From: Pseudomonadota bacterium
GTDB lineage: Bacteria > Desulfobacterota > Desulfobulbia > Desulfobulbales > SURF-16
Reading direction: 5' to 3'
Assembly (NCBI GenBank): GCA_043809085.1
Contig: JAZDEG010000011.1
Span: 214,272 to 278,271, forward strand
DNA: 64,000 nucleotides
Shown here: in pieces, positions 18,987 to 53,809 of the stretch
How positions within the stretch are numbered: position 1 is the stretch's first letter
How the letters are laid out: each line of letters begins with the position of its first letter
Program-made: the position numbers and the translations under genes
The notes under the pieces: model-generated
What the model was told of the DNA's origin: nothing
The model's database searches: none
What the model saw: the letters and a program-made list of their open reading frames with translations, nothing else

Positions 18987-20372
18987 CTATACATCAATGC
19001 TTCGATTGATTTCAATCTTGTGTTTCTTCAACCTCTTCCACAGGGTTACCCTGCTGATGCCGAGTGTTCGGGCTGCTTCAGATTTGTTGCCGTCCGAGGC
19101 CTTCAGGGCCTGCAGCAACCGTTGCCGTTCATCTTCCGTCTTGTTGATCCTGGATTTGACAAGCGGGATATTTAATATTTTGGGATGACTGGCAAAATGT
19201 GAGGGGAGGTGACCGGGGAGAATGAGCCCCCCGGGGCAGAGGACATATGCGTATTCGATGACGTTGATCAATTCTCTGACGTTGCCGGGCCAGTTGTAAT
19301 GATTGAGGAGTTCCATGGCTTCCCTTGATACGCCCTTTATCTCTTTACCGGTCTTCAGGGAGGTTCTTTCAATGAAGGCTTCAATCAGCAGGGGGATGTC
19401 CTCTTTTCTTTCACGCAGGGAAGGTGTGTAGATGGGGATAACGCCGATGCGGTAGTAGAGGTCTTCCCGGAAAAGGCCTTCTTTGATCAGTTTTTGCAGA
19501 TTTTTGTTTGTTGCGGAAATGATCCGCACATTAATGGGGATGGGCTGATGATCGCCGACCCGTTCTATTTCCTGCTCCTGGAGAACGCGTAGAAGTTTGG
19601 TCTGCAGAGAATGGGGCATGTCGCCGATCTCGTCAAGAAAAATGACTCCGCCGTTGGCCGCCTCAAAACGACCGATGCGGTCTGATGCGGCACCGGTAAA
19701 AGACCCCTTGGCGTGGCCGAACAGTTCGCTTTCCAAAAGGTTGTCGTTTAACGCCGCACAGTTGACTTTGATGTATGGTTTATTCTTTCTGTTGCTTAAC
19801 CTGTACAGCGCCGAAGCAATCAGTTCTTTGCCGGTACCGCTTTCACCGTAAATGATAGCCGGTGAATCCGATTGAGCCGCACTTCTTGTGAGGTCGAATA
19901 TCTTGCGCATCATGGGAGCATTGCCGATTAGCCCCTGGAATCCGTCTTCGTGGTGCAGATGGCGCTTCAGGAAATTGATGACCCTGTCCTTTTCCTCAAG
20001 GACGCTCAGGTCGGTGAGGTTTTCCACTCCGGCCAGGATATTGCCGTCATCATCTTTTAAAATGGCGGCATTTTTGAAAACAGAAATCAGAGAACCGTCC
20101 TTGCGGCGAAATGAGCATTTCAGGCCTCTTACCTCTCCTTTCTGGAAAAGGCCGCAGAATTTCCCCTTTCCCTTTTGCTTCGTACCGAAACAGGAGTCGC
20201 ATTCCAGGACATCACATTTTTTGCCGATTAATTCTTCTTTTGTATACTGCAGCATCTCTTCCAGGGCTTTGTTTATATAAAGAATTTTGCCCGATGAATC
20301 GATCAGCATGAGGCCTTCGGTCATTGTTTCGATGATTTTGTTGCCGTTCTCACCGGAAAACAGGTCAAGCAT
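18987..20372 (-). CDS. sigma-54-dependent transcriptional activator (PAS - AAA+ - Fis-type HTH, no receiver domain)
   Basis: Walker A GESGTGKE, the GAFTGA-type loop ELFGHAKGSFTGA, and a C-terminal HTH AARTLGISRVTLWKRLKK. The N-terminal PAS domain contains CDVLECDSC...C. Confidence 0.9.
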   Translation of the reverse strand: MLDLFSGENGNKIIETMTEGLMLIDSSGKILYINKALEEMLQYTKEELIGKKCDVLECDSCFGTKQKGKGKFCGLFQKGEVRGLKCSFRRKDGSLISVFKNAAILKDDDGNILAGVENLTDLSVLEEKDRVINFLKRHLHHEDGFQGLIGNAPMMRKIFDLTRSAAQSDSPAIIYGESGTGKELIASALYRLSNRKNKPYIKVNCAALNDNLLESELFGHAKGSFTGAASDRIGRFEAANGGVIFLDEIGDMPHSLQTKLLRVLQEQEIERVGDHQPIPINVRIISATNKNLQKLIKEGLFREDLYYRIGVIPIYTPSLRERKEDIPLLIEAFIERTSLKTGKEIKGVSREAMELLNHYNWPGNVRELINVIEYAYVLCPGGLILPGHLPSHFASHPKILNIPLVKSRINKTEDERQRLLQALKASDGNKSEAARTLGISRVTLWKRLKKHKIEINRSIDV

Positions 20373-20581: not shown

Positions 20582-20701
20582 TTTTTTGAGGGGCGGAATC
20601 ACTGGAAGGGGTGATTTTTTGAAATTGTTTGATCTGCTGAAAAGTTATTGCGTGCCTGTTTCCGGCATAAAACATTCAAAAATCAGGAGGGAATTGGAAG
20701 T

Positions 20702-22138
20702 ATGAAAAAGTACAATGTTTTGTTGTCACTGTTTCTGGTGGCGGCATTTGCTGCCCCGGGTTTCGGCAATGCCGATGAAAACCATAAGGGAATCAGCGGG
20801 CCGTTTGCCACACCCATGGATGTGACCAAAAAATGCCTTGAGTGTCATGAGAATGCTGCAAAAGATGTGATGGTAACTTCTCACTGGACCTGGACTCTGG
20901 AACAGAATGTGCCGGGGCAGGGCAAGGTGCAGAGGGGCAAGAAAAATACCATTAATAATTTCTGTATTTCCATCAACTCGAACTGGCCGCGTTGTACAAG
21001 CTGTCATATCGGGTACGGCTGGAAGGATGCGAGTTTTGATTTCAGCGACGAAAGCCGGGTGGATTGCCTTGTCTGTCACGATACAACCGGAACATATGTG
21101 AAACCTCCCGCCGGAGCAGGTATGCCGGCAGGATTCACCGGAAAGCCTGGCATGGACAAGAACCCCGTTGATCTGGTGACGGTCGCCCGGAATGTCGGCA
21201 AGCCGGGCCGGGAGGATTGTCTCGGTTGCCATGCCAATGGTGGCGGCGGCAATAATGTCAAGCACGGCGATATTGACCAGTCGCTGATCAAGCCGACCAA
21301 GGAAATCGATTTCCACATGGGAACCGACAGCCTGAATTTTTCCTGTCAGGAATGTCATTCCGGTTCAGGCCACCACCTTCGCGGCAATGCGCTGCTTGTT
21401 TCTCCGGCCGGCAATAATCCGGTCTCCTGTACCCAGTGTCATGATGAGAAACCCCATACCGAGGCACTCTTGAACAGTCATGTGGACACGGTTTCCTGCC
21501 AGGCCTGTCATATCCCTGTCTTTGCCAAGAAGGATGCCACCAAGATGAGTTGGGACTGGTCCCTGGCCAGGAAAACGACAAAAGAGCAGGCCGAGGAAAA
21601 AGATGCCCATGGTCACGCAGTTTTCTTGGCAAAAAAAGGGCGTTTCACCTATGAGGAAAAGGTTGTGCCGACTTATGCCTGGTACAACGGAAGCGCTGGT
21701 GCTTACAGATTGGGCGACAAAATTAATCCGTCCGAAGTGACGAATCTGAACTATCCCCTGGGTGATATCCATGATGCCAATGCCAGGATTCACCCTTTTA
21801 AGGTGCACACGGGCAAACAGATTTATGATACCAAAAACAAATACTTCATCACCCCGAAAATTTTCGGCTTTGCCGGTGACGAAGCAGCGTTCTGGGAAAC
21901 CTTTGACTGGCACAAGGCTTCCGTTGCCGGCATGAAGGAAAGCGGTCTCGATTACAGTGGTGAGTATGGCTTTGCCGCCACCGCGACGTACTGGCCGATT
22001 AATCATATGGTTTCCGCCAAAAACGAAACAGTTGGCTGTCTTGATTGTCACGGCGAAAAAGGGCGTCTGGACTGGACAGGCCTTGGCTATCAAGGAGATC
22101 CAATGGTTACGAAGGGAGGGGCGCGGGCAAAAAAATAA
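20702..22138 (+). CDS. otr: octaheme c-type cytochrome, tetrathionate reductase (Otr) family
   Basis: Signal peptide plus exactly eight CxxCH motifs (CLECH, CTSCH, CLVCH, CLGCH, CQECH, CTQCH, CQACH, CLDCH). About 478 aa, matching the Otr architecture. Confidence 0.8.
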   Translation: MKKYNVLLSLFLVAAFAAPGFGNADENHKGISGPFATPMDVTKKCLECHENAAKDVMVTSHWTWTLEQNVPGQGKVQRGKKNTINNFCISINSNWPRCTSCHIGYGWKDASFDFSDESRVDCLVCHDTTGTYVKPPAGAGMPAGFTGKPGMDKNPVDLVTVARNVGKPGREDCLGCHANGGGGNNVKHGDIDQSLIKPTKEIDFHMGTDSLNFSCQECHSGSGHHLRGNALLVSPAGNNPVSCTQCHDEKPHTEALLNSHVDTVSCQACHIPVFAKKDATKMSWDWSLARKTTKEQAEEKDAHGHAVFLAKKGRFTYEEKVVPTYAWYNGSAGAYRLGDKINPSEVTNLNYPLGDIHDANARIHPFKVHTGKQIYDTKNKYFITPKIFGFAGDEAAFWETFDWHKASVAGMKESGLDYSGEYGFAATATYWPINHMVSAKNETVGCLDCHGEKGRLDWTGLGYQGDPMVTKGGARAKK

Positions 22139-22577: not shown

Positions 22578-23864
22578 ATGAGAAAGATTCTGAGTATTAC
22601 GGCAATCAGTATGGTCGCCGTAGCGTCCAATGGCTGGGGGGCCGAGGGCGGTGATCTGGAAAAACAGGTGCGGGAACTGGTCCGTCAGAACAGGATGTTG
22701 ATTGAGAGGGTGACTGATCTGGAGAAGCGACTGGAGATTCAGGAAAGCCCGGCGAAAAGACACTACGGTCAGCCCGCAGTTGTCGACCAGGAAGGACAAG
22801 CCGGGGAGGTGGATGAGGATGTTGCCGTCCTTGGCTCTCAGGAACAGGGGCAGGTTGCGGAAGAGCCGGGTCCGTCGATTCTTGGTGATCTGCGGGATCG
22901 CGTCGAGCTTGGCGCCCTGGTTGAGGTTGAGTCAAATATAAGTGAGTCGTTTGACAATGAGGATGCCGGGGATATTACCCTTGCCACGGTTGAGATAGGG
23001 CTTGACGCCCGAATCTCCTCATGGTCTGACGCCCATCTTGTCTTTCTTTATGAAGGTGGGGAGGAAGATGAGCATGTGCTGCTTGACGAGGGCACCATTA
23101 CCCTTTCTGATTCGGAAAAAATACCTGCCTATTTGACGTTGGGGAAAATGTATCTCCCCTTTGGTTCATATGAAAGCAATATGATTTCTGATTCGTTGCC
23201 TCTGGAGATCGGCGAGATTAATGATACCGCCGCTCTTGTCGGCTTTGAGGCACGAGGATTCTCCGGGGCGATATTTGTTTTTAACGGGGACATCAATGAA
23301 ACCGATAAGGAAGATACGATTGACGTTTACGGTGCAAGCCTTGGGTATGTTCATGAATGCGAAAGGCTGTCCTTTCGTGCCGGGGTGGACTGGATGAATA
23401 ATATCGCTGACACCGATGGGCTGGGTGATAATCTGTCGGAGCGTGAAGTTGATGATGCGGATCAAATTGACGATTATGTCGAGGGGGTGGCCCTCCATCT
23501 GCAGCTCGATTATGGTGCTTTTTCATTCATGGCGGAATACGTGGCCGCACTTGATGCATTTCAGTCCGGCGAGATCGCTTTTGGTAACCGCGGAGCCGAG
23601 CCCGAGGCATGGAGTTATGAGATCGGCATGACCTGTCAGTTGCTTGATCGGGAAACCGTGTTCGCCCTGGGTTACCAGGGAACGGATGAGGCGCTGGCGT
23701 TTGAGTTGCCGGAAGATCGCTATCTCGCGGCGGTCCGTATGTATCTTTTTGAAAACACCAGTCTGGCCCTGGAATATCTTTACGATAAAGATTATGATAA
23801 ATCCGAGGATGGGAGCGGGAATCATGCTCATTCCGCCACCATGCAGCTTGCCGTGGAGTTTTGA
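22578..23864 (+). CDS. outer-membrane beta-barrel porin with N-terminal coiled coil (LbtU-family-like siderophore porin)
   Basis: Signal peptide, then a coiled coil (LEKQVRELVRQNRMLIERVTDLEKRLE), then alternating beta-strand pattern ending in aromatic ...LAVEF. The family assignment is from memory of LbtU-like porins. Confidence 0.5.
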   Translation: MRKILSITAISMVAVASNGWGAEGGDLEKQVRELVRQNRMLIERVTDLEKRLEIQESPAKRHYGQPAVVDQEGQAGEVDEDVAVLGSQEQGQVAEEPGPSILGDLRDRVELGALVEVESNISESFDNEDAGDITLATVEIGLDARISSWSDAHLVFLYEGGEEDEHVLLDEGTITLSDSEKIPAYLTLGKMYLPFGSYESNMISDSLPLEIGEINDTAALVGFEARGFSGAIFVFNGDINETDKEDTIDVYGASLGYVHECERLSFRAGVDWMNNIADTDGLGDNLSEREVDDADQIDDYVEGVALHLQLDYGAFSFMAEYVAALDAFQSGEIAFGNRGAEPEAWSYEIGMTCQLLDRETVFALGYQGTDEALAFELPEDRYLAAVRMYLFENTSLALEYLYDKDYDKSEDGSGNHAHSATMQLAVEF

Positions 23865-24739: not shown

Positions 24740-25576
24740 ATGACGGATGTTGCCGCAGAGCAGGAACTGTACCGGGCCTGCCGGATCATATTTGGGTCTA
24801 ATCTTGACGTATCACGGGAGTTTCTTGAGTATCTTCAGCTTTCCGGGGTGAAAAGCGCTTTCCGTAAAAAGGCGATGGAAACTCATCCCGACCGTTTGGC
24901 TGGACAGGATCAGTTGACCAGAAACAAAAGCGTCAGACTTTTTCATTCAGTCAAAAATGCCTATGAGCAGTTGACCCGCTACGTTGATGCCCGTGAAAAA
25001 GGTTTCCGTTTCCCGGGCCGCCACTCACCAGCAACCCATTTGAACTCTGTCTCAAAAAACAACGGACGTCAATCCAAGTCCCACCAGGAATCGCCCCCAT
25101 CGGCAAAACGCAGCTTTGCGGCAAGGCAAACCTCGCATCAGGCTTTTTACGGGCGGAATCTCTATCGGGGACATATTCCTGAACGCGGGCTTCTTTTCGG
25201 GCAGTACCTTTATTATGCGGGGCAGATATCCTGGCAGGATCTCAATCAGGCCATCTTGTGGCAGAGGACGCAGCGTCCCCGCCTGGGAGAAATTGCCCGG
25301 GAGCGCGGCTGGCTACGCCGGGAAGATATTCTGCTTGTGTTGCGCTCTGCTTCCCGGCTCTCTCATGTTTTTGGCGAGCAGGCCTTGCATCTGGGCCTCT
25401 TGACCCGCGCCCAGCTTCAACTTCTCCTCTTTGAGCAGAAACGTCGCCACCGGAGGATAGGTGAGTTCTTTGTCCTCCACCACATACTGACCCGGTCGCA
25501 GCTCCTGGCCCTTCTTTCAAGATTTAACCGACATAATGCGATACATATCCAGTCCCGCAGATTTTCAGCACGATAG
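24740..25576 (+). CDS. J-domain (DnaJ-like) protein with four C-terminal MshEN/GspE-N-type 24-residue repeats
   Basis: J domain with an HPD tripeptide (AMETHPDRL). The C-terminal part has four motifs of type xhGxxhhxxGhhxxxxLxxxLxxQ separated by 5-residue spacers. The start is either the ATG at 24740 or the TTG at 24704. Confidence 0.7.
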   Translation: MTDVAAEQELYRACRIIFGSNLDVSREFLEYLQLSGVKSAFRKKAMETHPDRLAGQDQLTRNKSVRLFHSVKNAYEQLTRYVDAREKGFRFPGRHSPATHLNSVSKNNGRQSKSHQESPPSAKRSFAARQTSHQAFYGRNLYRGHIPERGLLFGQYLYYAGQISWQDLNQAILWQRTQRPRLGEIARERGWLRREDILLVLRSASRLSHVFGEQALHLGLLTRAQLQLLLFEQKRRHRRIGEFFVLHHILTRSQLLALLSRFNRHNAIHIQSRRFSAR

Positions 25577-27384
25577 TGATTTATAACAATCTCATATACC
25601 TCATTGTCATTATTTTCATCCTTTCAACCAATAGTGTGCCGGAAATCCCACAATTCGGCCCCTTGCCGGTTTTTTTGCTTTTTTCCCTGAAAGGATCGGC
25701 CTATTTTCTGGTGACCAGGATCCTGTTCCACAGAAAGCGGATCACCCAGGCGGCGGATTATTTTTCCGCCGAGCAGAAGCTTTCCATTATGGCCATTACC
25801 TGGCTTGCGGTCGATGTGTATTTTCTGGACTGCCAGTATTATTTTGCCATGATCCCGGGCAGTAGCCTTCTGCCGATTCTGGTCAGCGTCTGTGGTATCC
25901 TGCTTTTTTTCTTCTATCTCAGCATCTTGTGGATGGGGGCGAGGAGTCACTATGGCCGCATTTTCGGACGCGACTATTCTGCCTCATCATTTGTCAAAAT
26001 CAATCTGAAAAACAATATCCCCATTATTCTTCCCTGGCTGCTTCTTTCCTTGCTCGCCGATCTGCTCATGCTGCTGCCCTTTCCCGGCGTAAAATTGTTT
26101 TTTCATTCCGCCTGGGGGGAGCCGCTTTTTTTTCTGGTATTCTTTATCTTGCTTGCCGTCGTCCTGCCCGGCATCATTACCCGCCTGTGGGGTTGTCGGT
26201 CCATGGAGGCCGGTCCGGTCCGCAGCCATGTTGAGGCATTCTGCCAGAAACTGCAGCTGAAATATGCCGATATTCTCATCTGGCCCCTGTTTGAGGGGCA
26301 GGTGTTGACCGCCGGGGTTATGGGCATGAGCAAACGTTTTCGGTATCTGCTTTTTACGCCGGCGTTGCTTGACAGTATGACAGTTGAAGAGGTGGACGGG
26401 GTCATGGCCCATGAAATCGGCCATGTGAAAAGATACCATCTGCAGCTTTATATGGTTCTTCTGCTCGGATTCAGTCTTATCGCCCAGCTCGGCACCTATA
26501 TTTTCATGTATCTGTTGTTGAAATCCGATTATTTTTATCAGTTGACCGCCTTTTTGGGCAAAAAAACCGACGCTGTGCTTATTTTTTTCAGTTCATTTGG
26601 TCTGCTTGTCCTGCTGATTCTTTATTTCCGGTATGTGTTCGGATTTTTCATGCGAAATTTTGAGCGCCAGGCGGATCTTTATGCCATGGAGAGTCTTGGC
26701 AGCAGCAGCGGGATCATAAATGCCCTGGAAAAAGTTGCCTGGCTCTCAGGCGACATCAGGGATCTGCCCAGCTGGCACCATTTCGGCATTGGTGAACGGG
26801 TTGAATTTCTGCAGCGCTGCGAGAAAGAGCCGACTCATATTCGCCGTCATCACCGTAAGGTCTATGGGGCATTGGTGGCATATCTCGCAGTTCTCGTGCT
26901 GACCGGGTTTACCCTGTGGAAAATGCCGAGTGATCTGCTGGAGCGGGCGCCGCTTGACCATCTTGCCAAGCTGTATCATGAAAAAACAGTGGAAGAGCCG
27001 CAAAATCCGCTTTGGCTGCAACTGCTCGGTGATCTGCAACAGGGAAGGCATCATTATGGGGACGCGATCAACGCTTATAAAAAGGCTTTGGATTTGGTCC
27101 CGCAACATCCGGAGATTCTCAATAATCTTGCCTGGATATTTCTTACCGCAACAGATCTGAAGTTTCGTGATCCGCAAACAGCCCTGATGCTGGCCCGAAT
27201 CGCGGCTGAACAGCGACCGGCCGGATACATTCTCGATACCCTGGCCATGGCATACTGGCAGAATGGATTCCCGCAAAAAGCGCAGCAGGTGGAGAGGGAG
27301 GCCATCCGGGTTGATCCTGAGCATCGGCATTATTACGAAAAGCAGATGGAGCGATTTGGCGGGGCGGCGGAGGAACCAAAATGA
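25576..27384 (+). CDS. membrane M48 family metallopeptidase with C-terminal TPR domain
   Basis: Multiple transmembrane segments, the HEIGHVKRYH zinc motif and C-terminal TPR repeats. The GTG start overlaps the stop of the J-domain gene. Confidence 0.75.
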   Translation: MIYNNLIYLIVIIFILSTNSVPEIPQFGPLPVFLLFSLKGSAYFLVTRILFHRKRITQAADYFSAEQKLSIMAITWLAVDVYFLDCQYYFAMIPGSSLLPILVSVCGILLFFFYLSILWMGARSHYGRIFGRDYSASSFVKINLKNNIPIILPWLLLSLLADLLMLLPFPGVKLFFHSAWGEPLFFLVFFILLAVVLPGIITRLWGCRSMEAGPVRSHVEAFCQKLQLKYADILIWPLFEGQVLTAGVMGMSKRFRYLLFTPALLDSMTVEEVDGVMAHEIGHVKRYHLQLYMVLLLGFSLIAQLGTYIFMYLLLKSDYFYQLTAFLGKKTDAVLIFFSSFGLLVLLILYFRYVFGFFMRNFERQADLYAMESLGSSSGIINALEKVAWLSGDIRDLPSWHHFGIGERVEFLQRCEKEPTHIRRHHRKVYGALVAYLAVLVLTGFTLWKMPSDLLERAPLDHLAKLYHEKTVEEPQNPLWLQLLGDLQQGRHHYGDAINAYKKALDLVPQHPEILNNLAWIFLTATDLKFRDPQTALMLARIAAEQRPAGYILDTLAMAYWQNGFPQKAQQVEREAIRVDPEHRHYYEKQMERFGGAAEEPK

Positions 27385-27932
27385 ACGGAGCCGAAGAGAA
27401 GCAAAGAAACGTGGATAATGGCCTTGTCCTGCTTTATACGGGAGACGGCAAAGGGAAGTCATCCGCCGCGTTTGGTCAGGCCTTACGTGCTGCCGGCCAT
27501 GGCATGAAGGTGTGCATTATTCAGTTTATCAAGGGGAAATGGCAGACCGGCGAGGCGCAGAGTTTTGCCCGACTGTCCGACAGGGTTGAGTTTCATGTCA
27601 AGGGCGGTGGTTTTACCTGGCTGAGCGAGGATAAGTCAGCGGCGATCCGATTCGCCAGGGATGCCTTTGATTTTGCCGGGGAAAAAATCATGAGCAACCG
27701 TTTCGACATGGTTGTGCTTGATGAGCTGACCTATCTCATCACCTATGGCATGGTGGAGGAGAAGGATGTGCTGGACCTGATCAGGCATCGCCCCCCCGTT
27801 CTGCATCTGGTGATCACCGGGCGGGGGGCAAGCGAGAGTTTGATCGATGCCGCAGATCTTGTTTCCGAAATCAGGATGGTCAAGCATCACTATGAGAAGG
27901 GGATTCCCGCCAGGAGGGGAATAGAATTTTGA
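27381..27932 (+). CDS. cobO: cob(I)yrinic acid a,c-diamide adenosyltransferase
   Basis: GLVLLYTGDGKGKSSAAFG P-loop and IIQFIKG, DMVVLDELTY blocks. An ATGA overlap joins it to the upstream gene. Confidence 0.85.
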   Translation: MNGAEEKQRNVDNGLVLLYTGDGKGKSSAAFGQALRAAGHGMKVCIIQFIKGKWQTGEAQSFARLSDRVEFHVKGGGFTWLSEDKSAAIRFARDAFDFAGEKIMSNRFDMVVLDELTYLITYGMVEEKDVLDLIRHRPPVLHLVITGRGASESLIDAADLVSEIRMVKHHYEKGIPARRGIEF

Positions 27933-27951: not shown

Positions 27952-28653
27952 TTATCTGTCATTTTCCGGAACAAGGGCAACCGGGGTGGCAAAGTCGAGC
28001 AGGCGCAGGTCATGACCGCTGATTAATGCCTGACCGAGGATTACTCCGAAAGAGTGTGCTTCCTCAAGCTGTTTTCTGGCATGTCCGTATCGTGGATAAT
28101 GTTTGCCGATGAACTTGGATTTTTCCGGCGATTTGCCCGCAAGTTTCAGGAAAACCCCCAGTGTTCGCCAAGGCTCCTTGCTTGGGTGAGTGAAAACGAT
28201 TCGGTTCATCACGATTGCCCCGTTTTTATGCAGCAACTGGCGCAGGCCGAACCAGTGCATGCGCCAGTACCCACGGCAGGATATGAGGGGGATGACCTTC
28301 TGGCCGGAAAAAAGCCTTGTCCCGTCCCGGTCAAGCAGAGAGAGGACCGGCCCGCTGGGATGATAGGACCAGGTGGGTCCGGCAAGGATGATCAGATCAT
28401 ACCTCGCCCGGCACTTCTCCGACAGGGGCGCAATGAGGATACGCGCCCTGAAGAAGGTGACCAGCATCATTGCCACGGTGCTCCGCACTGACCCGAAGGG
28501 AAAGCGGATGGGCCTGGTCGGTCTGAGCCGTTCGATGGTCACCGATATGCCGGTCGTTTGTAAACCGCTTGCCAGTCGGGAAAGCAGATTGCTTGTCTGC
28601 CCGCTTAGGGAAAAGCAGATGATCAATATTTTTTTTGGTGCTGATTTTTCCAT
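27952..28653 (-). CDS. flavodoxin-fold protein, DarA-like family
   Basis: N-terminal KKILIICFSLSGQT, then YDLIILAGPTW...PSGPV...VIPLISCRGYW. The pattern resembles DarA-type flavodoxin-like proteins; this is recalled from memory, not a database hit. Confidence 0.4.
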   Translation of the reverse strand: MEKSAPKKILIICFSLSGQTSNLLSRLASGLQTTGISVTIERLRPTRPIRFPFGSVRSTVAMMLVTFFRARILIAPLSEKCRARYDLIILAGPTWSYHPSGPVLSLLDRDGTRLFSGQKVIPLISCRGYWRMHWFGLRQLLHKNGAIVMNRIVFTHPSKEPWRTLGVFLKLAGKSPEKSKFIGKHYPRYGHARKQLEEAHSFGVILGQALISGHDLRLLDFATPVALVPENDR

Positions 28654-28691
28654 GGCTGAGAATAGTACCCCATGAAAAGGAATTTTTCATT

Positions 28692-30068
28692 ATGGAAAAA
28701 ACGTATGATGTCGTCATAGTCGGTGCCGGGGTTTCAGGGCTGGCCGCTGCTCATTTTCTCAAAAAGCAGTCTCCCGGTTTGCGTGTTCTGCTGCTTGAGC
28801 GGAGCGGTCGGGCCGGGGGGGCCATCCGTTCTTTTCGGCAAGACGGTTTCCTTGCCGAATGGGGTCCCCACGGTTTTCTTGATAATGCTCCGGAAAGCCG
28901 TGAAATTCTGGAGGATACCGGTCTTTATCAGGAGGCGCAGCAGGCGCCGCTGGGAAATTTTCACCGTTATGTTTGCCATCGAGGCAGGCTTGTGCAGATC
29001 CCGCAGAAACCACAAAAAATTCTGGTCACGCCACTTCTTTCCCCCTGGGGAAAAATCAGGGTGTTGGGGGATTTGTGGATCAAACCTGAACCCCGGGACC
29101 AGACGATCGGCCATTGGGCGGCAAGGCGTTTCGGCAAAGAAATACTGCCACTGGTTGATGCCGCTGTTACCGGCAGTTTTTCCGGTGACTTCAATCGTCT
29201 CAGTATCGATGCGGTGATGCCGGGGGTGCGCAAGCTGGAACAGGAGCATGGTTCCTTGTTTCGCGGACTTTTCAAGAAGATGAAGGCGGCAAAATCAAAG
29301 GTCAAGGGACGGCTGCCTGCCATGAATAATTTTCCCCAGGGGCTTGAGCGTCTGGTTGAGGTGTTGGCCGGAGAGAAGGACATCATCTTCAACGCCGGGG
29401 TCTGCGGACTGACCAGGGAGAATGCAGGGTGGCGTCTGGTAACGGCTGACAGGGAGGTGCAGGCGACACATCTTGTCATGGCCCTGCCGGTAAACAGCAG
29501 TCTGCCTCTGCTGGCCCCTTTCGGAGCGCCGCCCTTGACGGAGGTGCCGGTCTCGAACATTTGCAATGTGGTGCTGGGTTATGATGATAGTGCCCGGGTG
29601 CCCCCCGGGTTTGGTTATCTCGCGCCCGAGTGCGAAAAAAGGTTTACCCTGGGGGTTCTTTTTTCGTCGCACATGTTTCCCAATCGTGCCCCGAAAGGGA
29701 AGGTGCTCTTGGAAGCGTTGGTGGGTGGGCGAAGACATCCGGAGCGGCTGGAACTGTCTGATGAGGAAATTATTGCATCCGTCTGCCGTGATATTTCCCA
29801 GTTGATGGAGCTTCCCGAGAAACCTGTCTTTGCCAAAGTTCTCCGGCCATCCGGAGGAATACCTCAACTTGAGATGGATCACCCGAAAATGCTGGTCTAC
29901 CGCAGCGAGATAGAAAAGAACAACCGGGGGCTCTATATCTGTGGTTTCGGTTGGGACGGTATCGGTATCAACGATATGATTAAATCGGCCAAAAAAGCGG
30001 CAACTGCAATCAGTGCCGGTGGCCGGGGGCATGAAGGAGAGGCGCCGGTGAAGCCGGTTTATTTTTAA
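28692..30068 (+). CDS. hemY: FAD-dependent protoporphyrinogen/coproporphyrinogen oxidase (HemY/CgoX type)
   Basis: YDVVIVGAGVSGLAAA dinucleotide fold, GGAIRS...GFLAEWGPHGF, and a C-terminal LYICGFGWDGIGINDMI block. Confidence 0.75.
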   Translation: MEKTYDVVIVGAGVSGLAAAHFLKKQSPGLRVLLLERSGRAGGAIRSFRQDGFLAEWGPHGFLDNAPESREILEDTGLYQEAQQAPLGNFHRYVCHRGRLVQIPQKPQKILVTPLLSPWGKIRVLGDLWIKPEPRDQTIGHWAARRFGKEILPLVDAAVTGSFSGDFNRLSIDAVMPGVRKLEQEHGSLFRGLFKKMKAAKSKVKGRLPAMNNFPQGLERLVEVLAGEKDIIFNAGVCGLTRENAGWRLVTADREVQATHLVMALPVNSSLPLLAPFGAPPLTEVPVSNICNVVLGYDDSARVPPGFGYLAPECEKRFTLGVLFSSHMFPNRAPKGKVLLEALVGGRRHPERLELSDEEIIASVCRDISQLMELPEKPVFAKVLRPSGGIPQLEMDHPKMLVYRSEIEKNNRGLYICGFGWDGIGINDMIKSAKKAATAISAGGRGHEGEAPVKPVYF

Positions 30069-37713: not shown

Positions 37714-40050
37714 ATGGGAAATCCACTTGCAGCAAGACTGCATGGCGTCATCCCGGAACATGAGCTCAATTCCTGGGAGCGGGATGACCTCCTTGAGCAG
37801 TTGTCCGGTTACGACCGGCAGCGGGAAGATGTTGTGCTGACCCAGATTGGGGTTTTGTGGCCGGTCAGCCATTCACTTTGTTTTGCCTTTCTGGAACAGC
37901 TTGATGCCGGACTCGCCTGCCTTGATGAAAAGCAGCTGCCTGAATGGGTCAAAGGCATTCTGGCCGCCTATGAATCAGACGGTCTCCGTGCCGCCCGGGC
38001 CTATATGGAAGATGTTGAACTCAATTTCCTTTGCCGACTGCGGGGGGAAAACGGTCTGACCTTGGTCGAGGCCCAAGGGAAGCTTCTTCATTATGTGCGT
38101 GGTCTTGCAGGGAAAAATTTGCAGATTGAGCCTGCTGCATTTGTTGCAACCGATACGGAAACCATTTTTTTACCCAGGGAAATAACGATTTTTCAGGACA
38201 AAACGGACAACTTCCGGGTATTCAAGCTTCTCGCTTCCTTTCAGTGGGCCTTTATCCATCAGGATCTTTATTGCCACCGACGCAGCACACGAGCCGCCCT
38301 TGCCGGAAGTGGAAAGAATGTGGTGCCAACAGATCAACAGGCTGATTTGCTTGACTTTTTCCTGAGACAATTCCCTGTCCCTGAACTGGCCCGTGACATT
38401 TATCATCTGTTGCAGAGCGTGCGTGCCTCTTTTTTTCTGAAGTCATATCTCCCGGCTTTGATGCGGGATGCCCAGCCTTTTTTTGTTCAGCAGTTGCAGG
38501 AGATGTCTTCTTCGCCTCTTCCTGCCGGAGCGGCGGCTTCCCTCCATGAAGTCCGCTTGTGGCTGCTTGCCGCTCTTGGTGGGACGAAGTCTGCGTTGCC
38601 GGTGGGAGCGCCGGGTCGGATTATTGAAGAACTGCAGAGTGCTATAAGCGATATGGCGGAGGTTTTTTCCCTGACCGCTGAGCTGTATCATGTGCTTCGA
38701 CCCGAGTCAGAGGATTACACTCCTCTTTCCCCGCTGCTTTTCCAGGGTGAACTGAAGCCGCAGGCTGCGAACCGGGCAAGACTTGTCCGCAGGGCCGCAC
38801 AGAAACAGAAATTTATCGATGGGTTGGCAGCAATTCTTCCTCTGGAAACCGGAGAAAAGGAGCAAGCCAGGGATGAGGTGCCGGAAAAACGGCAACCCGC
38901 GGCCAATGTTCTGGACAGTGGGGCAAATGTAGCGCCCATGCAATCCCAAAGCGGGAAGGAGGAAGACCTGGAAAATCAGGATGCCGGCGAACCCCGTTTC
39001 ATCTGTCTTGATGATGAAAAGCTTGATCTGCCCGAGGAATTAAAGAGCCTGGCTCGTGAAATCGAAGACGATCTGGGCGGAATCCCCGCTTTTTATATCG
39101 CCAGCGCCGGCATGAAAGCCGGAAGCAGGGGCAAAAACCCCATGACGAGTGCCGAACAGGAGGACGGGAACGGTTTGAGTGGTGAATTGCTTTATGACGA
39201 GTGGGATTACCGCAGGCAGGGTTTTCGGAAAGACTGGTGCCATCTGATCCGGAAAAATATTCACCCGGTCAAGGGGACATTTGTCGGCAACACCCTGGCC
39301 ACGTATCGCGGCCAGATCATCCAGTTGAAAAGGCAATTTGAGATGATGCAGACCCGACACCGGTTTGTCAAGCGGCAGCGGGATGGCGATGAAATCGATG
39401 TGGACGCCTTGATCGAGGCATATGCGGATGTGAAGGCCGGGCATGCTCCTTCCGAGCGGTTATTTGTCAGGCTCCTGCGGGATGAACGAGACATTGCCGC
39501 CCTTTTTCTAGTGGACATGTCATCCTCTACGGAAGGCTGGGTGGGGACTGCCCTGAAAGAGTCGCTGGTGTTGCTGAGCGAGGCGATGGAGGCCCTTGGC
39601 GACCGCTATGCCATTTACGGTTTTTCCGGCATGCGGCGAACCCGATGCGAGGTCTATCATGTCAAGGATTTTGCGGAGCCTTATTCGGATGAGATAAAAG
39701 GGCGCATTGCCGCCATTGCACCCATTGATTATACCCGCATGGGTCCGCCCATCAGGCATTTTACCGCAGAGCTGGCCCGATTGGACGCCAAGGTTCGACT
39801 TCTGATAATACTGACCGACGGCAAGCCCGAGGATTATGATGATTATAAGGGCGAGTATGCCATTGAGGACACGCGTCATGCCTTGATTGAAGCCAAGGTG
39901 GCGGGTATTCATCCATTCTGCATCACCATAGATCGGGAGGCGCAGGATTACATGGCCCACATGTTCGGAAAAATCAATTACACCTTTATAGATGACGTGC
40001 GCAAGCTTCCCCTGCGGGTGCCGGAAATATATCGGACCATAACCAGTTGA
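37714..40050 (+). CDS. CbbO/NorD-like protein with C-terminal von Willebrand factor A domain
   Basis: 778 aa. The C-terminal VWA domain has a MIDAS motif DMSSST and ends ...ILTDGKPEDYD. It immediately follows the CbbQ-like gene. Confidence 0.8.
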   Translation: MGNPLAARLHGVIPEHELNSWERDDLLEQLSGYDRQREDVVLTQIGVLWPVSHSLCFAFLEQLDAGLACLDEKQLPEWVKGILAAYESDGLRAARAYMEDVELNFLCRLRGENGLTLVEAQGKLLHYVRGLAGKNLQIEPAAFVATDTETIFLPREITIFQDKTDNFRVFKLLASFQWAFIHQDLYCHRRSTRAALAGSGKNVVPTDQQADLLDFFLRQFPVPELARDIYHLLQSVRASFFLKSYLPALMRDAQPFFVQQLQEMSSSPLPAGAAASLHEVRLWLLAALGGTKSALPVGAPGRIIEELQSAISDMAEVFSLTAELYHVLRPESEDYTPLSPLLFQGELKPQAANRARLVRRAAQKQKFIDGLAAILPLETGEKEQARDEVPEKRQPAANVLDSGANVAPMQSQSGKEEDLENQDAGEPRFICLDDEKLDLPEELKSLAREIEDDLGGIPAFYIASAGMKAGSRGKNPMTSAEQEDGNGLSGELLYDEWDYRRQGFRKDWCHLIRKNIHPVKGTFVGNTLATYRGQIIQLKRQFEMMQTRHRFVKRQRDGDEIDVDALIEAYADVKAGHAPSERLFVRLLRDERDIAALFLVDMSSSTEGWVGTALKESLVLLSEAMEALGDRYAIYGFSGMRRTRCEVYHVKDFAEPYSDEIKGRIAAIAPIDYTRMGPPIRHFTAELARLDAKVRLLIILTDGKPEDYDDYKGEYAIEDTRHALIEAKVAGIHPFCITIDREAQDYMAHMFGKINYTFIDDVRKLPLRVPEIYRTITS

Positions 40051-43148: not shown

Positions 43149-43394
43149 TTGGTTGCAATTTAGTCTTCAAGTTTTGCAGCACTGAAGGATATGCTACGGT
43201 GCGAATGTTATTATCTAACCTATAAGATACGGTATAAATGAAGAAACTGTCAATGAGCTGGATTGGGATGGGGGAATAAATTTACTCTGAGTGGGAATTA
43301 CTGATATAATTTGCTGAGAAAACAGGCTGACAAGAGCGATGATGGATGTAGGTAATTCGCTGCAGCCGTGGGTCGTAATGGAGGAGTGTTTGAG

Positions 43395-45662
43395 ATGAAG
43401 GACGAAAATGCAAATCAGAGAATTCTGTTTCTCGGATCAAATGTCAAGATCCGTAATCTGCCGATAAAGGAAGTAAGTCTTATCGAGGAAGGCAGCCTGC
43501 CCGCCTATGGTTATAATCCAGGTGATTTCGTAGAGCTTCTCGCCGGCAAGGTGGCGGTGGAAAACGGTCGTCTGGACCAGACTTTGACCTGGCTCGCCTC
43601 GTATCTCACCGCAGGAAACCTGACCCCGCACATCACCACCATCACCTATGGTGAACAGAAGGATATCTTTCAGGTTTTTCGCAAGCGGCAGCGACCGGAA
43701 ATCGACAAGGACCATGGCTGGTTCATGGTTCATCAGATTCTTCCTTTTGCCGGACGCGGCAAGGACGAAACGGCCTTGACCGTAACCGATGAAAACCGGG
43801 AAAAATTGAGCGGGCATGACGGTATCCTGGTGATCGACGACGGCGGACGTCCGCCGCAGATTGCCGCTGAGTTGAAGGAGCTGAATCCGGATGCCTGGGT
43901 GATTGCCATGGGCATCAGCGTCGCCCATTGGGCCGACTGGGCCGGACATTTCGGAGAGAATTTCGTTCTGTTCGGTCGCCTCTCGGATCTGGAAACGACC
44001 CGTATGGAGATGGACAGTTCCGTAGTATGGGAATCAATTGTCGCCATGGCGCTGCGCGCTCTTCGCTCTCCCGAGGTCGGTATATGGGACGAACGGCTGG
44101 GGCGTTTCCGTTGTCACACCATGATCGAGATGTTCCCCCACGGTCTGCTCTACGTCAGCCCGGACAGTGTTTTTTTTCGGCACAGGGAAGGGAGTCTGCC
44201 GGAAAAGAGTTCACCCCGGCAGAAAGGATCGGTGCCTGCGTATGATACCATGGTCACTTCAATACTGGCCATGGACTATATCCGACTGGGGCGGCTCGTC
44301 GGAGGCCGCAGTTATTTCTGTGATTTCTCCAAGCGAACCCTGCTGCACTGGCAGTTGCTTTATGAAAACGGTTATTATTTCAGTGATTCGCTGGAACTGC
44401 CCAACCTTGATTTCACCTCAACTTTTCCCAATGGCTGTCCGTGTTCCTTTCTGGATCGGAATGATCCGTTTTTCATTGAACTTTCGTCTTTTTCTTCGGA
44501 ATTTGACAGGAGCCTTGAGCTGGTTGCAGCCCAGGAATGGACCAGGGAGAAGATGGCGGGCCTGCGGGCATTTTTTGATCAGACAGGACGGGTTACACCG
44601 AAGGCTCGGCATGCTCCGCCGGGATCTGTTCCCCTTGGCTATATGGACGTCATTCTCGAGGTATTGCACTATCTGAAGGAGGAGGTGAGCCGGAAATGCG
44701 GTTTCCAGAATCTGCGCATGTTCAATGTCGGTCACCTGAGGACCACAGACCCGGCTGAGATCGGGCCGGTTCTCACCCTGCAGTCGGTGATGGATTCCTA
44801 TGTGACGAAAGAGAGCTACCAGCGGCCCCTCTGTATCGGCGTCTTCGGTCCCCCGGGGTCGGGAAAATCCTTTGCCGTCAAGGAGGTTGCCAAAGTCATC
44901 GGCAAGAAATTCGATAACGATCCCTTTGATTTTTTTGAGTTCAATCTGACCCAGTTCGCCGAGCCGGATGAGATCAATTCCGCCATAGATCTGGTGCGGG
45001 CCTCGGTTGCCAAGGGCAAGGTGCCCATTACTTTCTGGGACGAGTTTGACTGCCGCTACGGCGGCCATGAATTCGGGTATCTCCGCTACTTTCTGCCATC
45101 CATGCAGGACGGCGTTACCTACGTGCACGGTATACCCTACTATATCGGCCGGTCCATTTTCGTTTTTGCCGGAGGAGTGAAGACGAATTGGCAGGGCATG
45201 GAGGACATTCTCGGCAAAGCCACTCCCCAAGAACTCCAGATGGCAAAGACCCTGAAGATTCCCGATTTCATGAGCAGGCTGCGGGTGGTGCTGGACATTG
45301 ACGGTATTGATATTCGGGAAGAACTGCTGCGGGATTCCGCTTCCGGCGTTGAACTGGAAGAGTTGCGCCGGATTTTGTTGAAGAGGGCCTTTATCATTGC
45401 CCATCAGATGGATACCCACTGGAAAAAGGCGGCGCGGAAGACATCCGGACTTCTGCTCCGGCTGCTCATTGCCCAGTACAAATTCGGCGCCCGTTCCATC
45501 GAAGCGGTCATCGAGGCCAGCCGCGCCGCTGATCGCCTTGTCTACGGATTGCCGGAGCTGATCGGCCCTTCCGGCGCGCGTATTCATGCCGACTGGCGGG
45601 TTGATCTGGAGCGCAGGCTCGACCAAGTGAGAAAAAAACAGGGATTGCGGGCTGTGTGGTAA
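43395..45662 (+). CDS. uncharacterised large protein: unknown N-terminal about 450 aa + C-terminal AAA+ ATPase module
   Basis: Walker A GVFGPPGSGKSFAVKEVAK, Walker B ITFWDEFD, and a lid-like region (KIPDFMSRL). The N-terminal part shows only a weak ribokinase-like echo (VPAYDTMVTS versus DTxGAGD). GGAGGAG RBS before the ATG at 43395. Confidence 0.7.
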   Translation: MKDENANQRILFLGSNVKIRNLPIKEVSLIEEGSLPAYGYNPGDFVELLAGKVAVENGRLDQTLTWLASYLTAGNLTPHITTITYGEQKDIFQVFRKRQRPEIDKDHGWFMVHQILPFAGRGKDETALTVTDENREKLSGHDGILVIDDGGRPPQIAAELKELNPDAWVIAMGISVAHWADWAGHFGENFVLFGRLSDLETTRMEMDSSVVWESIVAMALRALRSPEVGIWDERLGRFRCHTMIEMFPHGLLYVSPDSVFFRHREGSLPEKSSPRQKGSVPAYDTMVTSILAMDYIRLGRLVGGRSYFCDFSKRTLLHWQLLYENGYYFSDSLELPNLDFTSTFPNGCPCSFLDRNDPFFIELSSFSSEFDRSLELVAAQEWTREKMAGLRAFFDQTGRVTPKARHAPPGSVPLGYMDVILEVLHYLKEEVSRKCGFQNLRMFNVGHLRTTDPAEIGPVLTLQSVMDSYVTKESYQRPLCIGVFGPPGSGKSFAVKEVAKVIGKKFDNDPFDFFEFNLTQFAEPDEINSAIDLVRASVAKGKVPITFWDEFDCRYGGHEFGYLRYFLPSMQDGVTYVHGIPYYIGRSIFVFAGGVKTNWQGMEDILGKATPQELQMAKTLKIPDFMSRLRVVLDIDGIDIREELLRDSASGVELEELRRILLKRAFIIAHQMDTHWKKAARKTSGLLLRLLIAQYKFGARSIEAVIEASRAADRLVYGLPELIGPSGARIHADWRVDLERRLDQVRKKQGLRAVW

Positions 45663-45748: not shown

Positions 45749-45825
45749 GCACCCGTAGCTCAGCTGGATAGAGTACCGGACTACGAATCCGATGGTCGCA
45801 TGTTCGAATCATGCCGGGTGCGCCA
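45749..45825 (+). tRNA. tRNA-Arg (anticodon ACG), CCA encoded
   Basis: Folded by hand. Acceptor GCACCCG/CGGGTGC, D arm GCTC-AGCTGGATA-GAGT, anticodon loop CTACGAA, T arm GCATG-TTCGAAT-CATGC, discriminator G, then CCA. Confidence 0.9.
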
Positions 45826-48163: not shown

Positions 48164-49330
48164 GTGAAAATGCAAACCCTGATAATAGAGTTATTATATA
48201 AATTTGCTCAGGATGAAGATGGTTTTCTGGGGGCGATTGATGAGTTGTTCGTGCTAAACGGCACTCAGGTCTATTCTGCCCTGTTTCATGTGTTTGCGGG
48301 CCTCGATCTGCCAGACAACGTCGCCGAAAATCAATGGCATGAAGTCGTAAAACATCATGAGTCTATGGCTCTTGCCCTGAGAAGAAAGGTGAGTATCAAA
48401 ACAGCGCTTTTCGATTATTTTTGCTGCATCAAAAAAACTGTCCGCAACCCAAAGATGATTGAGATGCTTCAGTATGAACAAACAGCAAGGCTGGCAAAGT
48501 ATGATGACTTGACCGGTCTTTTAAACCGTCATATGTATAATGAAGCCCTGGCACGCGAAATAACCAGGGCTGAAAGGCATTCTCTCGATCTGTCAATACT
48601 GTTTCTTGACCTTGATGATTTTAAAAAAATCAATGACCGCTATGGTCATAAGGCTGGCGATATTGTCTTGAAATCAGTAGCAGAAGTTATTATGCGTAAC
48701 CTTCGGAATGAAGATATCGCAGTAAGATATGGCGGTGAAGAAATAATTTTGCTGCTCCCGGAAACCAGCAAAAAAAATGCCTTTATTCTGGGGGAACGTA
48801 TTCGCGATGATGTTGCAGGCTTATGGATTCGCTACGGTGGGAGAGAAATCAATGTCACCTTGAGCGGCGGTCTCGCCTCTTTTCCTTATGATGCGACAGA
48901 TCTTGTCAATATTCAGGAAAATGCGGACAAGGCTCTCTATATGGCAAAGAAGGGCGGGAAAAATACAATCTGCATGTTTTCTCATGATATGCGGCGCTAT
49001 GTCCGTGTGGAATGTAACCGCGAAATCTATGTGGATGAGTTGGGCTTTAACGGTAAAGCTTTTTGCAAAGCCAGGAGTAGGGACATCAGCGGTGGAGGAT
49101 TATTTTTTGAAGCAGACAGAGAATTTGACCCCGGCACAAGGGTACAGGTGCAAATACCGCTTAACCCCGACAATCTGCTCTTGTTGGTCGCCAAGGTTGT
49201 GCGCACAAAATCTTCAGGGGAAAAACGATTTGAAACAGGAGCTTCCTTCGCGGCTCTCGATAACGGAACAAGCAGACAATTATTTAGCTATATATTCCTG
49301 AAAACTCATTGCCCACAGGTCAACGCTTAA
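48164..49330 (+). CDS. diguanylate cyclase (GGDEF) with C-terminal PilZ domain
   Basis: GGDEF domain LTGLLNRH...DLDDFKKINDRYGHKAGD...RYGGEEI, with an I-site RNED five residues upstream. PilZ motifs RRYVR (RxxxR) and DISGGG (DxSxxG) are present. Confidence 0.85.
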   Translation: MKMQTLIIELLYKFAQDEDGFLGAIDELFVLNGTQVYSALFHVFAGLDLPDNVAENQWHEVVKHHESMALALRRKVSIKTALFDYFCCIKKTVRNPKMIEMLQYEQTARLAKYDDLTGLLNRHMYNEALAREITRAERHSLDLSILFLDLDDFKKINDRYGHKAGDIVLKSVAEVIMRNLRNEDIAVRYGGEEIILLLPETSKKNAFILGERIRDDVAGLWIRYGGREINVTLSGGLASFPYDATDLVNIQENADKALYMAKKGGKNTICMFSHDMRRYVRVECNREIYVDELGFNGKAFCKARSRDISGGGLFFEADREFDPGTRVQVQIPLNPDNLLLLVAKVVRTKSSGEKRFETGASFAALDNGTSRQLFSYIFLKTHCPQVNA

Positions 49331-51823: not shown

Positions 51824-51877
51824 AGTAGCACCTCTTTTGATCCCAGCAGATCAGAAAAGAAGCGCTGATCTTACCAG

Positions 51878-51892
51878 GCAACCTCGCTACCA
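51878..51892 (-). promoter_or_regulatory. sigma-54 (-24/-12) type promoter of FG-GAP paralog 1
   Basis: The reverse strand reads TGGTAGCGAGGTTGC, GG-N10-GC with consensus spacing. It lies about 55 nt upstream of the ATG at 51823. Confidence 0.55.
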
Positions 51893-53741: not shown

Positions 53742-53809
53742 ATTTTTGGTTGCACTACTTATAGAGGGGACGCGCAGCAGGCCAGATAAAGAAGTGATGA
53801 TCTTGCCAG

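Follow-up and report, generated by a model that had tools for sequence, protein, structure and literature searches.

The window analyzed here, a stretch of 64,000 nucleotides (nt) from contig JAZDEG010000011.1 of a Desulfobulbales bacterium (assembly GCA_043809085.1), contains a gene for a protein of 278 amino acids (aa) that joins an N-terminal J domain to two tandem domains of the MshEN_N type, the module known from the cyclic di-GMP (c-di-GMP) receptor MshE. We designate proteins of this architecture J-(MshEN_N)2. They constitute a family of at least 633 clusters at 50% identity that is annotated only as generic J-domain protein, and in one bacterial branch, to which this organism belongs, their gene is followed by a gene for a polytopic M48 metalloprotease. 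The best overall explanation, to which we give about an even chance, is that the J-(MshEN_N)2 protein would act as a c-di-GMP sensor directing the chaperone DnaK to a partner protein, which in this organism may be the M48 protease. The coordinates of all features are collected in Table 1.

The reading frame of the J-(MshEN_N)2 gene could be extended upstream to a TTG codon at 24704; however, the ATG at 24740 is more plausible because the resulting N-terminus, MTDVAAEQ, agrees with the N-termini of the homologues. The frame and its HPD tripeptide (residues 49-51, nt 24884-24892, inside AMETHPDRL) stand exactly as described in an earlier, sequence-only annotation of this DNA (the original prediction). 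HPD, found in J domains in the loop between helices II and III, is the element by which they switch on the ATPase of DnaK/Hsp70. Its three residues H49, P50 and D51 are invariant in an alignment of 35 family members and in the wide family set described below. The Pfam DnaJ model matches 35 of 38 diverse family members at E <= 1e-3; the target protein itself reaches 25.1 bits (E 1.9e-5), short of the model's gathering score of 27.8. A profile built from 35 homologues retrieves many J domains of solved structure with E-values from 7e-6, and Foldseek matches the corresponding part of the AlphaFold (AF2) model to 2lgw, 2ctq and HscB, so that the J domain recognized in the original prediction is supported. 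A G/F region, a zinc finger and DnaJ_C are all absent, and the Pfam scan returned no DnaJ_C or DnaJ_CXXCXGXG match. The NCBIfam ActJ and DjlA models match some family members weakly. The protein is best explained as a soluble, cytoplasmic, class-III J-domain protein; an identical database entry (P0001) carries the label 'J domain-containing protein'. The linker that follows the J domain is not conserved, and its length ranges from 18 to 118 residues across the family.

The C-terminal half contains four motifs of 24 residues each (residues 152-262, nt 25193-25525) separated by the spacers RTQRP, SRLSH and KRRHR. Its relationship to MshEN was established with NF053729, the NCBI curated model 'c-di-GMP_motif, cyclic di-GMP-binding domain, MshE-related', a model of 53 positions with a cut-off of 38 bits. 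The whole protein scores 59.9 bits (E 1.5e-16) in two stretches, which puts the motifs well outside what chance would give, and the model matches all 38 diverse family members at E <= 1e-3. Against solved structures, the profile of 35 homologues finds Vibrio cholerae MshE (5HTL; E 1.3e-3) and Thermus thermophilus PilF (E 2.1e-3), and the best PDB match obtained with phmmer is again the MshE structure 5htl, over residues 207-261. An AlphaFold model, which the original prediction had suggested as a check, has a mean predicted local distance difference test (pLDDT) value of 85.2, exceeding 90 in the J domain and in both modules, and shows the C-terminal half as 4 + 4 helices. In Foldseek comparisons of this model, a module superposes on c-di-GMP-bound 5HTL with a root-mean-square deviation of 0.8 Å over 57 columns (probability 1.00) and on PilF's GSPII-B domain (8pfa) with 1.1 Å over 55 columns; the Foldseek E-values of these matches are about 1 because the modules are short. 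Together with the conservation of the glycine at motif position 3 (G3) and the glutamine at position 24 (Q24), considered below, these profile and model comparisons support the assignment of the C-terminal half to the MshEN type, as originally claimed. Only about 16 residues follow motif 4 and an MshEN_C/T2SSE_N1 subdomain is missing, which places the protein among the MshEN_N-only architectures of Wang et al. 2016.

The letters and positions of the four motifs were given correctly in the original prediction, but its view of them as four consecutive motifs with three equal spacers has to be revised. A reading as two tandem MshEN_N domains, A and B, each composed of 24 + 5 + 24 residues, suits them better. 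The two domains align with each other in register (hhalign E 8e-4, BLASTP E 7e-5, 23% identity). In the wide family set of 136 sequences (clustered at 50% identity), each of the two within-domain spacers has a length of five residues without exception (136 of 136), whereas the middle spacer, in effect an inter-domain linker, varies between 3 and 8 residues and has 4 residues in 123 of 136. The three equal spacers of the target protein are thus partly a coincidence, and a uniform four-fold repeat was rejected.

The extent of the family was determined with several searches. A word-indexed search returned 231 clusters, all full-length (about 270-330 aa), all from genomes of the Desulfobulbales type and all named 'J domain-containing protein', 'DnaJ' or 'hypothetical'. 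When the C-terminal 139 residues were used in an exhaustive HMMER search, 1,619 representatives at 50% identity were returned, of which 633 had E <= 1e-10. The best 150 of these representatives are 124-353 aa long, and in all of them the match lies at the C-terminus; HPD is found near residue 40-60 in 128 of the 143 newly returned proteins, and the remaining 15, which lack it, measure only 124-229 aa, as truncated fragments would. The family extends to Dissulfuribacteria and Nitrospirota; named members include Dissulfurirhabdus thermomarina, a metagenome-assembled genome (MAG) of the Thermodesulfovibrionales (Nitrospirota) and a Desulfocapsaceae MAG. In addition, metagenomes were searched with a hand-made degenerate DNA pattern derived from the family signature; this search found at least 120 stretches, and all 120 of those listed encode true family members.

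The gene downstream of the J-(MshEN_N)2 gene encodes a zinc metalloprotease (Pfam Peptidase_M48, PF01435, 43.6 bits against a cut-off of 20.3) with the motif HEIGH at residues 279-283 (nt 26410-26424). Residues H279, E280, H283, E363 and D367 are invariant among its relatives, and the GTG start is backed by homologues that are equally long and whose N-termini are conserved (MIYNNLIYL, with Y3, N4 and Y8 invariant). Hydropathy indicates about nine transmembrane helices, and the positive-inside rule predicts a cytoplasmic location for the N-terminus and both catalytic segments and a periplasmic one for the C-terminal TPR domain. The AlphaFold model of the protease (pLDDT 85.5) has as its closest folds the chamber proteases ZMPSTE24/Ste24 (E 4e-6, about 460 columns, TM-score 0.47-0.54), while BepA and consensus TPR proteins match parts of it. 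With Ste24/ZMPSTE24 (PDB 4AW6) the target protease shares the HExxH motif, the distal glutamate and a membrane-embedded helical body, but Ste24 has seven transmembrane helices instead of about nine. Like BepA, it joins an M48 domain to TPRs; compared with known M48 proteases, its TPR domain follows the final transmembrane helix and is predicted to be separated from the active site by the membrane. Identity with HtpX, BepA or LoiP was ruled out, as the scores are far below the NCBIfam equivalog cut-offs (33 vs 355, 18.4 vs 570 and 18.2 vs 365 bits, respectively).

Both gene overlaps noted in the original prediction are present: the TAG stop of the J gene and the GTG start of the protease share the G at 25576, and the TGA stop of the protease overlaps the ATG of cobO as ATGA at 27381-27384. 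We looked up the pairing of the J and M48 genes in other genomes from both sides. Starting from the J protein, the protease gene was directly downstream on the same strand in all five Desulfobulbales-type relatives examined (42-47% identity), while the upstream gene differed among them (PGI, FeoA, rhodanese or another M48). Starting from the protease, 593 stretches in species-representative genomes encode a relative; we examined the best 80 of these and counted the 71 that have at least 900 nt of upstream sequence. A J gene was directly upstream on the same strand in 46 of the 71, all from Desulfobulbales species genomes. Over the resulting 51 loci (46 from the protease side and 5 from the J side) the gap ranges from -11 to +187 nt, with the two genes overlapping in 15 and a gap of at most 30 nt in 37. 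Within the branch that carries it, the pair is kept although the J proteins diverge to about 42% identity and the genes on both flanks vary.

Several observations speak against a general partnership of the two proteins. The protease occurs without an adjacent J gene at 25 of the 71 species loci. Named genomes of Desulfocapsa, Desulfopila and Desulfocapsaceae are among these 25, where the upstream positions are taken by unrelated genes on the minus strand. Of 70 metagenome family loci with sufficient DNA on the downstream side, among the matches listed, only 4 have an M48 gene there, and none of six distant family members has one. Given the 25 protease loci without J and the 66 of 70 J loci and six of six distant members without M48, the adjacency may go back to one ancestral event. 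The original prediction proposed joint action with the polytopic M48/TPR protease encoded by the overlapping gene. Adjacency of the two genes, seen at 46 of 71 loci, is a feature of certain genomes but not a property of the family: the J-M48 link is real but lineage-specific, confined to the Desulfobulbaceae/Desulfurivibrionaceae branch. A universal partner was likewise rejected, since clustering of the neighbours revealed no gene family at more than 11 of the 120 loci, among the matches listed.

These counts bear on the alternative that the J protein and the M48 protease are merely co-transcribed neighbours inherited from one ancestor, without a physical or regulatory relationship, and that the real partner is encoded elsewhere, for example by the chemosensory machinery. 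We regard this as a serious contender, although somewhat short of an even chance. Genes of the che type (for methyl-accepting chemotaxis proteins (MCP), CheW, CheR, CheB or CheD) lie near the J gene at 10 of 57 metagenome loci of at least 4 kb, among the matches listed, compared with the 4 of 70 for M48. J-(MshEN_N)2 homologues stand within or beside chemotaxis operons at loci L211 (6001-6792) and L089 (5001-5858) and also at L100, L141 and L169; the gene order at L211 is cheA-mcp-cheW-cheR-cheD-cheB-[J]-cheY-like. One Desulfocapsaceae MAG has its protease locus (L063) without a J gene, whereas its J homologue is in the che operon of L211, on a separate contig. The recurrence of the chemotaxis context and the arrangement in this MAG fit the known fusions of MshEN_N to CheX and CheA. 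On the other side, adjacency, strand and a tight junction have persisted to the low J-protein identity given above, and the look-ups from the J side found the protease immediately downstream without exception. For a link between the two proteins it also counts that the predicted cytoplasmic catalytic face of the protease lies on the same side of the membrane as the J protein.

The second question is whether the MshEN_N modules of the family would bind c-di-GMP. In MshE, backbone amides of G3 hydrogen-bond the guanine of c-di-GMP (Wang et al. 2016, PMC5013675), positions 2, 17 and 21 form hydrophobic triads, Q24 contacts the ribose-phosphate, and the arginine at position 1 only stacks on the base (PMC5013675). 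Binding is lost when the glycines are changed to bulky residues, while changes of the arginine or glutamine cost less than 5-fold in affinity (PMC5013675). In PilF GSPII-B, lysine or leucine at position 1 gives nanomolar affinity (Neissner et al., PMC11731258), and GSPII-C binds with proline at this position; the position-1 consensus was widened to R/K/L (PMC11731258). The key residues of the motif then read (R/K/L)LGxxhhxxGhhxxxxLxxxLxxQ.

In the alignment of 35 members, G154, G161, Q175, G183 and G190 of domain A and G212, G219, Q233 and G241 of domain B are invariant. In the wide family set, G3 is retained in 114, 135, 132 and 135 of 136 sequences for motifs 1 to 4, respectively, and Q24 in all 136 for both motif 1 and motif 3; at this position motif 2 mostly has R/K and motif 4 is variable. 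Positions 17 and 21 are aliphatic throughout the family. Position 1 is L/R/M in motif 1, R/K in motif 2, P/R/L/K in motif 3 and K/R/P in motif 4, with L, R, P and K/R in the target protein; the variants L, K and P are compatible with binding in view of the PilF precedents. With regard to the register G3, G10, L17, L21 and Q24 described in the original prediction, G3 is indeed present in all four motifs of the target protein and the residues at positions 17 and 21 are hydrophobic, but position 21 of motif 1 is isoleucine rather than leucine. By our own count the four motifs match 7-8 of 11 key consensus positions.

Family-specific residues outside the published MshEN consensus are also near-invariant, namely Y158-Y159 and W174 in motif 1 and H265-N266 after motif 4. 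The latter two are invariant in all 35 aligned members and are kept in 132 and 134 of the 136 sequences, respectively. These family-specific residues may mark a surface for partner binding or reflect a variant ligand site.

Other observations weaken the MshEN assignment or count against ligand binding. The single modules fall just under the NF053729 cut-off (36.2 bits, E 3.7e-9 for domain A alone; 33.5 bits, E 2.7e-8 for domain B alone), although as evidence of homology these values are highly significant, and the N-terminus of V. cholerae MshE reaches 86 bits on the same model, over twice the score of either module. The Pfam family T2SSE_N (PF05157), which the original prediction had named as a place to look for similarity, gave no match to the J protein at E <= 1 in the Pfam scan, and NCBIfam NF053729 proved to be the informative model. 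Among the individual residues, G3 of motif 1 is replaced by alanine in 18 of 136 family members. In the target protein, motifs 2 and 4 lack Q24, motif 4 also lacks G10, and motif 2 has small or polar residues at positions 6-7. The 'relaxed' regular expression of Wang et al. fits none of the four motifs of the target protein, although it fits motif 3 in 28 of 35 relatives.

The modules might instead be degenerate and non-binding, their helices serving only for protein-protein interaction or dimerisation and thereby setting the client specificity of the J protein, in parallel with the non-binding N-termini of XpsE/GspE or PilF GSPII-A. Non-binding MshEN homologues are documented in XpsE and PilF GSPII-A (PMC11731258), and the systematic replacement of half of the Arg/Gln polar contacts would agree with such a loss, as would the low module scores, the poor fit to the relaxed expression and the missing G10. 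We nevertheless consider this alternative, one of the two main rivals, less likely than the preferred explanation. The most conserved residues are those that contact the ligand rather than those that pack the bundle (G3, Q24 of motifs 1 and 3) together with the exact five-residue spacers; the positions at which XpsE is inactivated, G3, the hydrophobic residues 17/21 and Q24, are kept here, the last in motifs 1 and 3 but not in 2 and 4; the position-1 residues L, K and P are proven to be compatible with binding (PMC11731258); and the 7-8 of 11 matching positions compare with 45% in the non-binding motif II of GSPII-A. Weighing the conserved G3 and Q24 and the position-1 precedent against the replaced Q24 and G10, we rate c-di-GMP binding by the J-(MshEN_N)2 protein as plausible but unproven, with the sequence leaning modestly in its favour. 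Degeneracy of the modules and mere proximity of the protease gene are not mutually exclusive.

That the protein is an ordinary DnaJ/CbpA-type co-chaperone with a generic helical repeat at its C-terminus, as source annotations such as 'molecular chaperone DnaJ', 'J domain-containing protein' or 'CbpA' would have it, is highly improbable and contradicted by the NF053729 matches in 38 of 38 members, the structural matches to MshE and PilF, the register-specific invariant residues, the missing G/F region, zinc finger and DnaJ_C, and scores of 12-22 bits on the NCBIfam DnaJ equivalog models with cut-offs of 338-548.

Under the preferred explanation, a c-di-GMP sensor that directs DnaK, each MshEN_N module would bind one c-di-GMP molecule in the fashion of MshE, with the backbone amides of the motif glycines contacting guanine, the hydrophobic triads stacking on the bases and the glutamine contacting the ribose-phosphate. 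The tandem pair would thereby combine a c-di-GMP sensor with a partner-docking module, and ligand binding would affect either the hold of the C-terminal half on its partner or the presentation of the J domain. Recruitment and activation of DnaK would fall to the J domain together with the flexible linker, and DnaK would be directed to the partner according to the level of c-di-GMP. The partner would vary by lineage: in the Desulfobulbaceae/Desulfurivibrionaceae it would most likely be the overlapping Ste24-like M48 protease, whereby membrane proteolysis or quality control would be tied to c-di-GMP, while in other lineages the J-(MshEN_N)2 protein may be wired to other partners, notably chemosensory clusters. 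Of the elements of this explanation, homology of the domains, fold, residue conservation, family size and synteny are shown by the analysis, while ligand binding, DnaK recruitment, contact with the protease and its topology are inferred. A broader version, which we put forward only tentatively, is that J-(MshEN_N)2 proteins represent a widespread and unrecognized class of c-di-GMP effectors that would link the messenger level directly to the targeting of Hsp70. The ligand-loaded sensor would dock to lineage-specific partners (the Ste24-like protease with its periplasmic TPR arm in Desulfobulbaceae and Desulfurivibrionaceae; chemosensory arrays in Desulfocapsaceae and others) and bring DnaK to remodel them.

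The closest known relatives of the modules are those of MshE (5HTL; PMC5013675) and PilF GSPII-B (PMC11731258), with which they have in common the 53-residue unit of 24 + 5 + 24 and its fold as a four-helix bundle; the conserved residues are G3, Q24 (motifs 1 and 3) and the hydrophobic ones at positions 2, 17 and 21. In contrast to MshE, the J protein has neither the MshEN_C/T2SSE_N1 subdomain nor a secretion ATPase, and it keeps the position-1 arginine and Q24 in only one motif per domain each. The MshEN_N-only architectures in Supplementary Table 4 of Wang et al. 2016 include (MshEN_N)2 (cce_1044), (MshEN_N)2-CheX (Glov_2742), (MshEN_N)2-REC-ACyc (MXAN_7396) and MshEN_N-Peptidase_M23. They resemble the J protein as tandem, portable sensors fused to an output, and an association with chemotaxis recurs; however, the J protein carries an N-terminal J domain, with the output first and the sensor last, and a J-domain fusion is not listed in that table.

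A conceptual precedent is provided by Myxococcus xanthus, where PilZ is fused to DnaK (CsdK1/CsdK2) and to DnaJ (PMC10313047, PMC8316039). These proteins, like J-(MshEN_N)2 with its putative receptor modules, unite a receptor domain for c-di-GMP with part of the Hsp70 machinery, which suggests that the messenger controls where the chaperone is targeted. In CsdK2, c-di-GMP binding was dispensable for the client interaction tested. The PilZ fusions differ in having a beta-barrel instead of a helical bundle and occur in another phylum with other genomic partners. Among J-domain proteins, Escherichia coli DjlA is a specialised class-III member. Both DjlA and Shewanella AtcJ (PMC6715715) resemble J-(MshEN_N)2 in combining a J domain with a short non-canonical specificity module, but neither is known to contain a nucleotide second-messenger module. 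In agreement with the original prediction, whose author knew of no such combination, the literature searched contained no published description of MshEN combined with DnaJ, a J domain or a chaperone. Thus the fusion of a J domain to tandem MshEN_N would be new, while the promiscuity of MshEN_N and the PilZ-Hsp70 fusions were already known.

The enzymes that make or break c-di-GMP greatly outnumber its known receptors, and the missing effectors are a standing problem (PMC12448109). If the proposed function is correct, J-(MshEN_N)2 would add an effector class with an Hsp70 output, so far hinted at only by the Myxococcus PilZ-DnaK/DnaJ proteins. As the family is large and its annotation uniformly generic, one binding result would re-annotate many genomes of sulfur-cycling Thermodesulfobacteriota and Nitrospirota. 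The pairing with the nine-helix M48-TPR protease and the chemotaxis operons offer two concrete candidate outputs, and cultured carriers are available in Thiovibrio sp. JS02, Desulfurivibrio dismutans AMeS2 and Dissulfurirhabdus thermomarina.

That the organism uses c-di-GMP is clear from the window, which encodes a GGDEF-PilZ fusion protein and two c-di-GMP-I riboswitches. The GGDEF-PilZ protein has the active-site motif RYGGEEI (Phe to Ile) with an RxxD I-site (RNED) five residues upstream. Two paralogous genes on the minus strand (50600-51823 and 52521-53825), both for proteins with fn3 and FG-GAP repeats, are each closely preceded by one of the riboswitches. Upstream of the J gene itself, the Rfam scan found neither a c-di-GMP riboswitch nor another Rfam element, and scans for promoters and terminators gave matches at chance level only.

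Table 1. Features of the J-(MshEN_N)2 locus and of the remaining window (positions of the whole stretch).
Feature	Position	Strand	Basis or remark
Gene for J-(MshEN_N)2 protein, 278 aa	24740..25576	+	ATG 24740, TAG 25574-25576; open reading frame list, sequence
J domain, residues ~10-86	24767..24997	+	HPD, Pfam DnaJ, family profile, Foldseek
Linker, disordered, basic, Pro/Ser-rich, residues 97-137	25028..25150	+	AF2 pLDDT <50 over 97-119, 121-137
MshEN_N-type domain A, residues 152-204	25193..25351	+	motif 1, spacer RTQRP, motif 2
MshEN_N-type domain B, residues 210-262	25367..25525	+	motif 3, spacer KRRHR, motif 4
Y158-Y159; W174; H265-N266	25211-25216; 25259-25261; 25532-25537	+	near-invariant in family
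C-terminal helix extension with H265-N266	25526..25573	+	family alignment, AF2 helix 252-276
TAGTG junction, J stop / protease GTG, 1-nt overlap	25574..25578	+	shared G at 25576
M48 zinc metalloprotease, polytopic, C-terminal TPR, 602 aa	25576..27384	+	GTG start, Pfam Peptidase_M48, TPR families
TPR domain of protease, residues 452-602	26929..27381	+	TPR_16, TPR_2, TPR_14 matches; after last transmembrane helix 429-450
cobO (ATP:corrinoid adenosyltransferase)	27381..27932	+	Pfam CobA_CobO_BtuR 217 bits, TIGR00708
233-aa protein gene	27952-28653	-	weak FMN_red/flavodoxin-like match, 21.2 bits, below cut-off
477-aa flavin amine-oxidase-family gene	28635-30068	+	divergent to 233-aa protein gene
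dnaA	30221-31555	-	~3 kb downstream of cluster
GGDEF-PilZ fusion gene	48164-49330	+	GGDEF 151.9 bits, PilZ 51.3 bits
Two c-di-GMP-I riboswitches	51874-51968; 53806-53902	-	Rfam RF01051, 84 and 47.8 bits, gathering score 35
Sigma-54 activator with PAS domain	18987-20372	-	upstream of multihaem cytochrome c and 428-aa protein
Multihaem cytochrome c	20648-22138		Cytochrome_cB 213 bits
428-aa protein	22578-23864		weak porin matches
778-aa protein	37714-40050	+	weak VWA match
764-aa protein	43368-45662	+	weak bpMoxR/AAA matches
tRNA gene	45749-45822

Among the other neighbours of the J-M48 pair, cobO and the gene for FeoA, which Pfam identifies upstream of the J gene in the window, were considered as parts of the system and rejected: cobO is downstream in three of the five J-side relatives and missing in two, and feoA is upstream in only one of the five. 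Thiovibrio sp. JS02 and a JGI contig show the same order of J, M48, cobO, a minus-strand gene for 225-233 aa, an amine-oxidase-family gene and dnaA; with this recurring dnaA adjacency, the locus adjoins a probable replication origin. The genes for the 233-aa and 477-aa proteins are kept beside cobO in relatives, and a tetrapyrrole-related neighbourhood may be possible.

Other contexts were seen at individual family loci. At L086 (4150-5004) and L087 (3376-4209), which represent distant family members from Dissulfurirhabdus thermomarina and a JGI contig, the J-(MshEN_N)2 gene is directly preceded by a gene for an alpha/beta-hydrolase; the two overlap by 4 nt in Dissulfurirhabdus, where a methyltransferase gene overlaps the 3' end of the J gene. 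Genes for GGDEF-EAL proteins are two genes away from the J gene at L001 (638-3901, minus strand) and L090 (6370-8370, plus strand), in Thiovibrio sp. JS02 and one metagenome contig; their products are of the dCache/PAS-GGDEF-EAL and CHASE8-GGDEF-EAL types, and this proximity could be due to chance. Elsewhere in the window, the 778-aa and 764-aa proteins may be parts of a MoxR-vWA type system.

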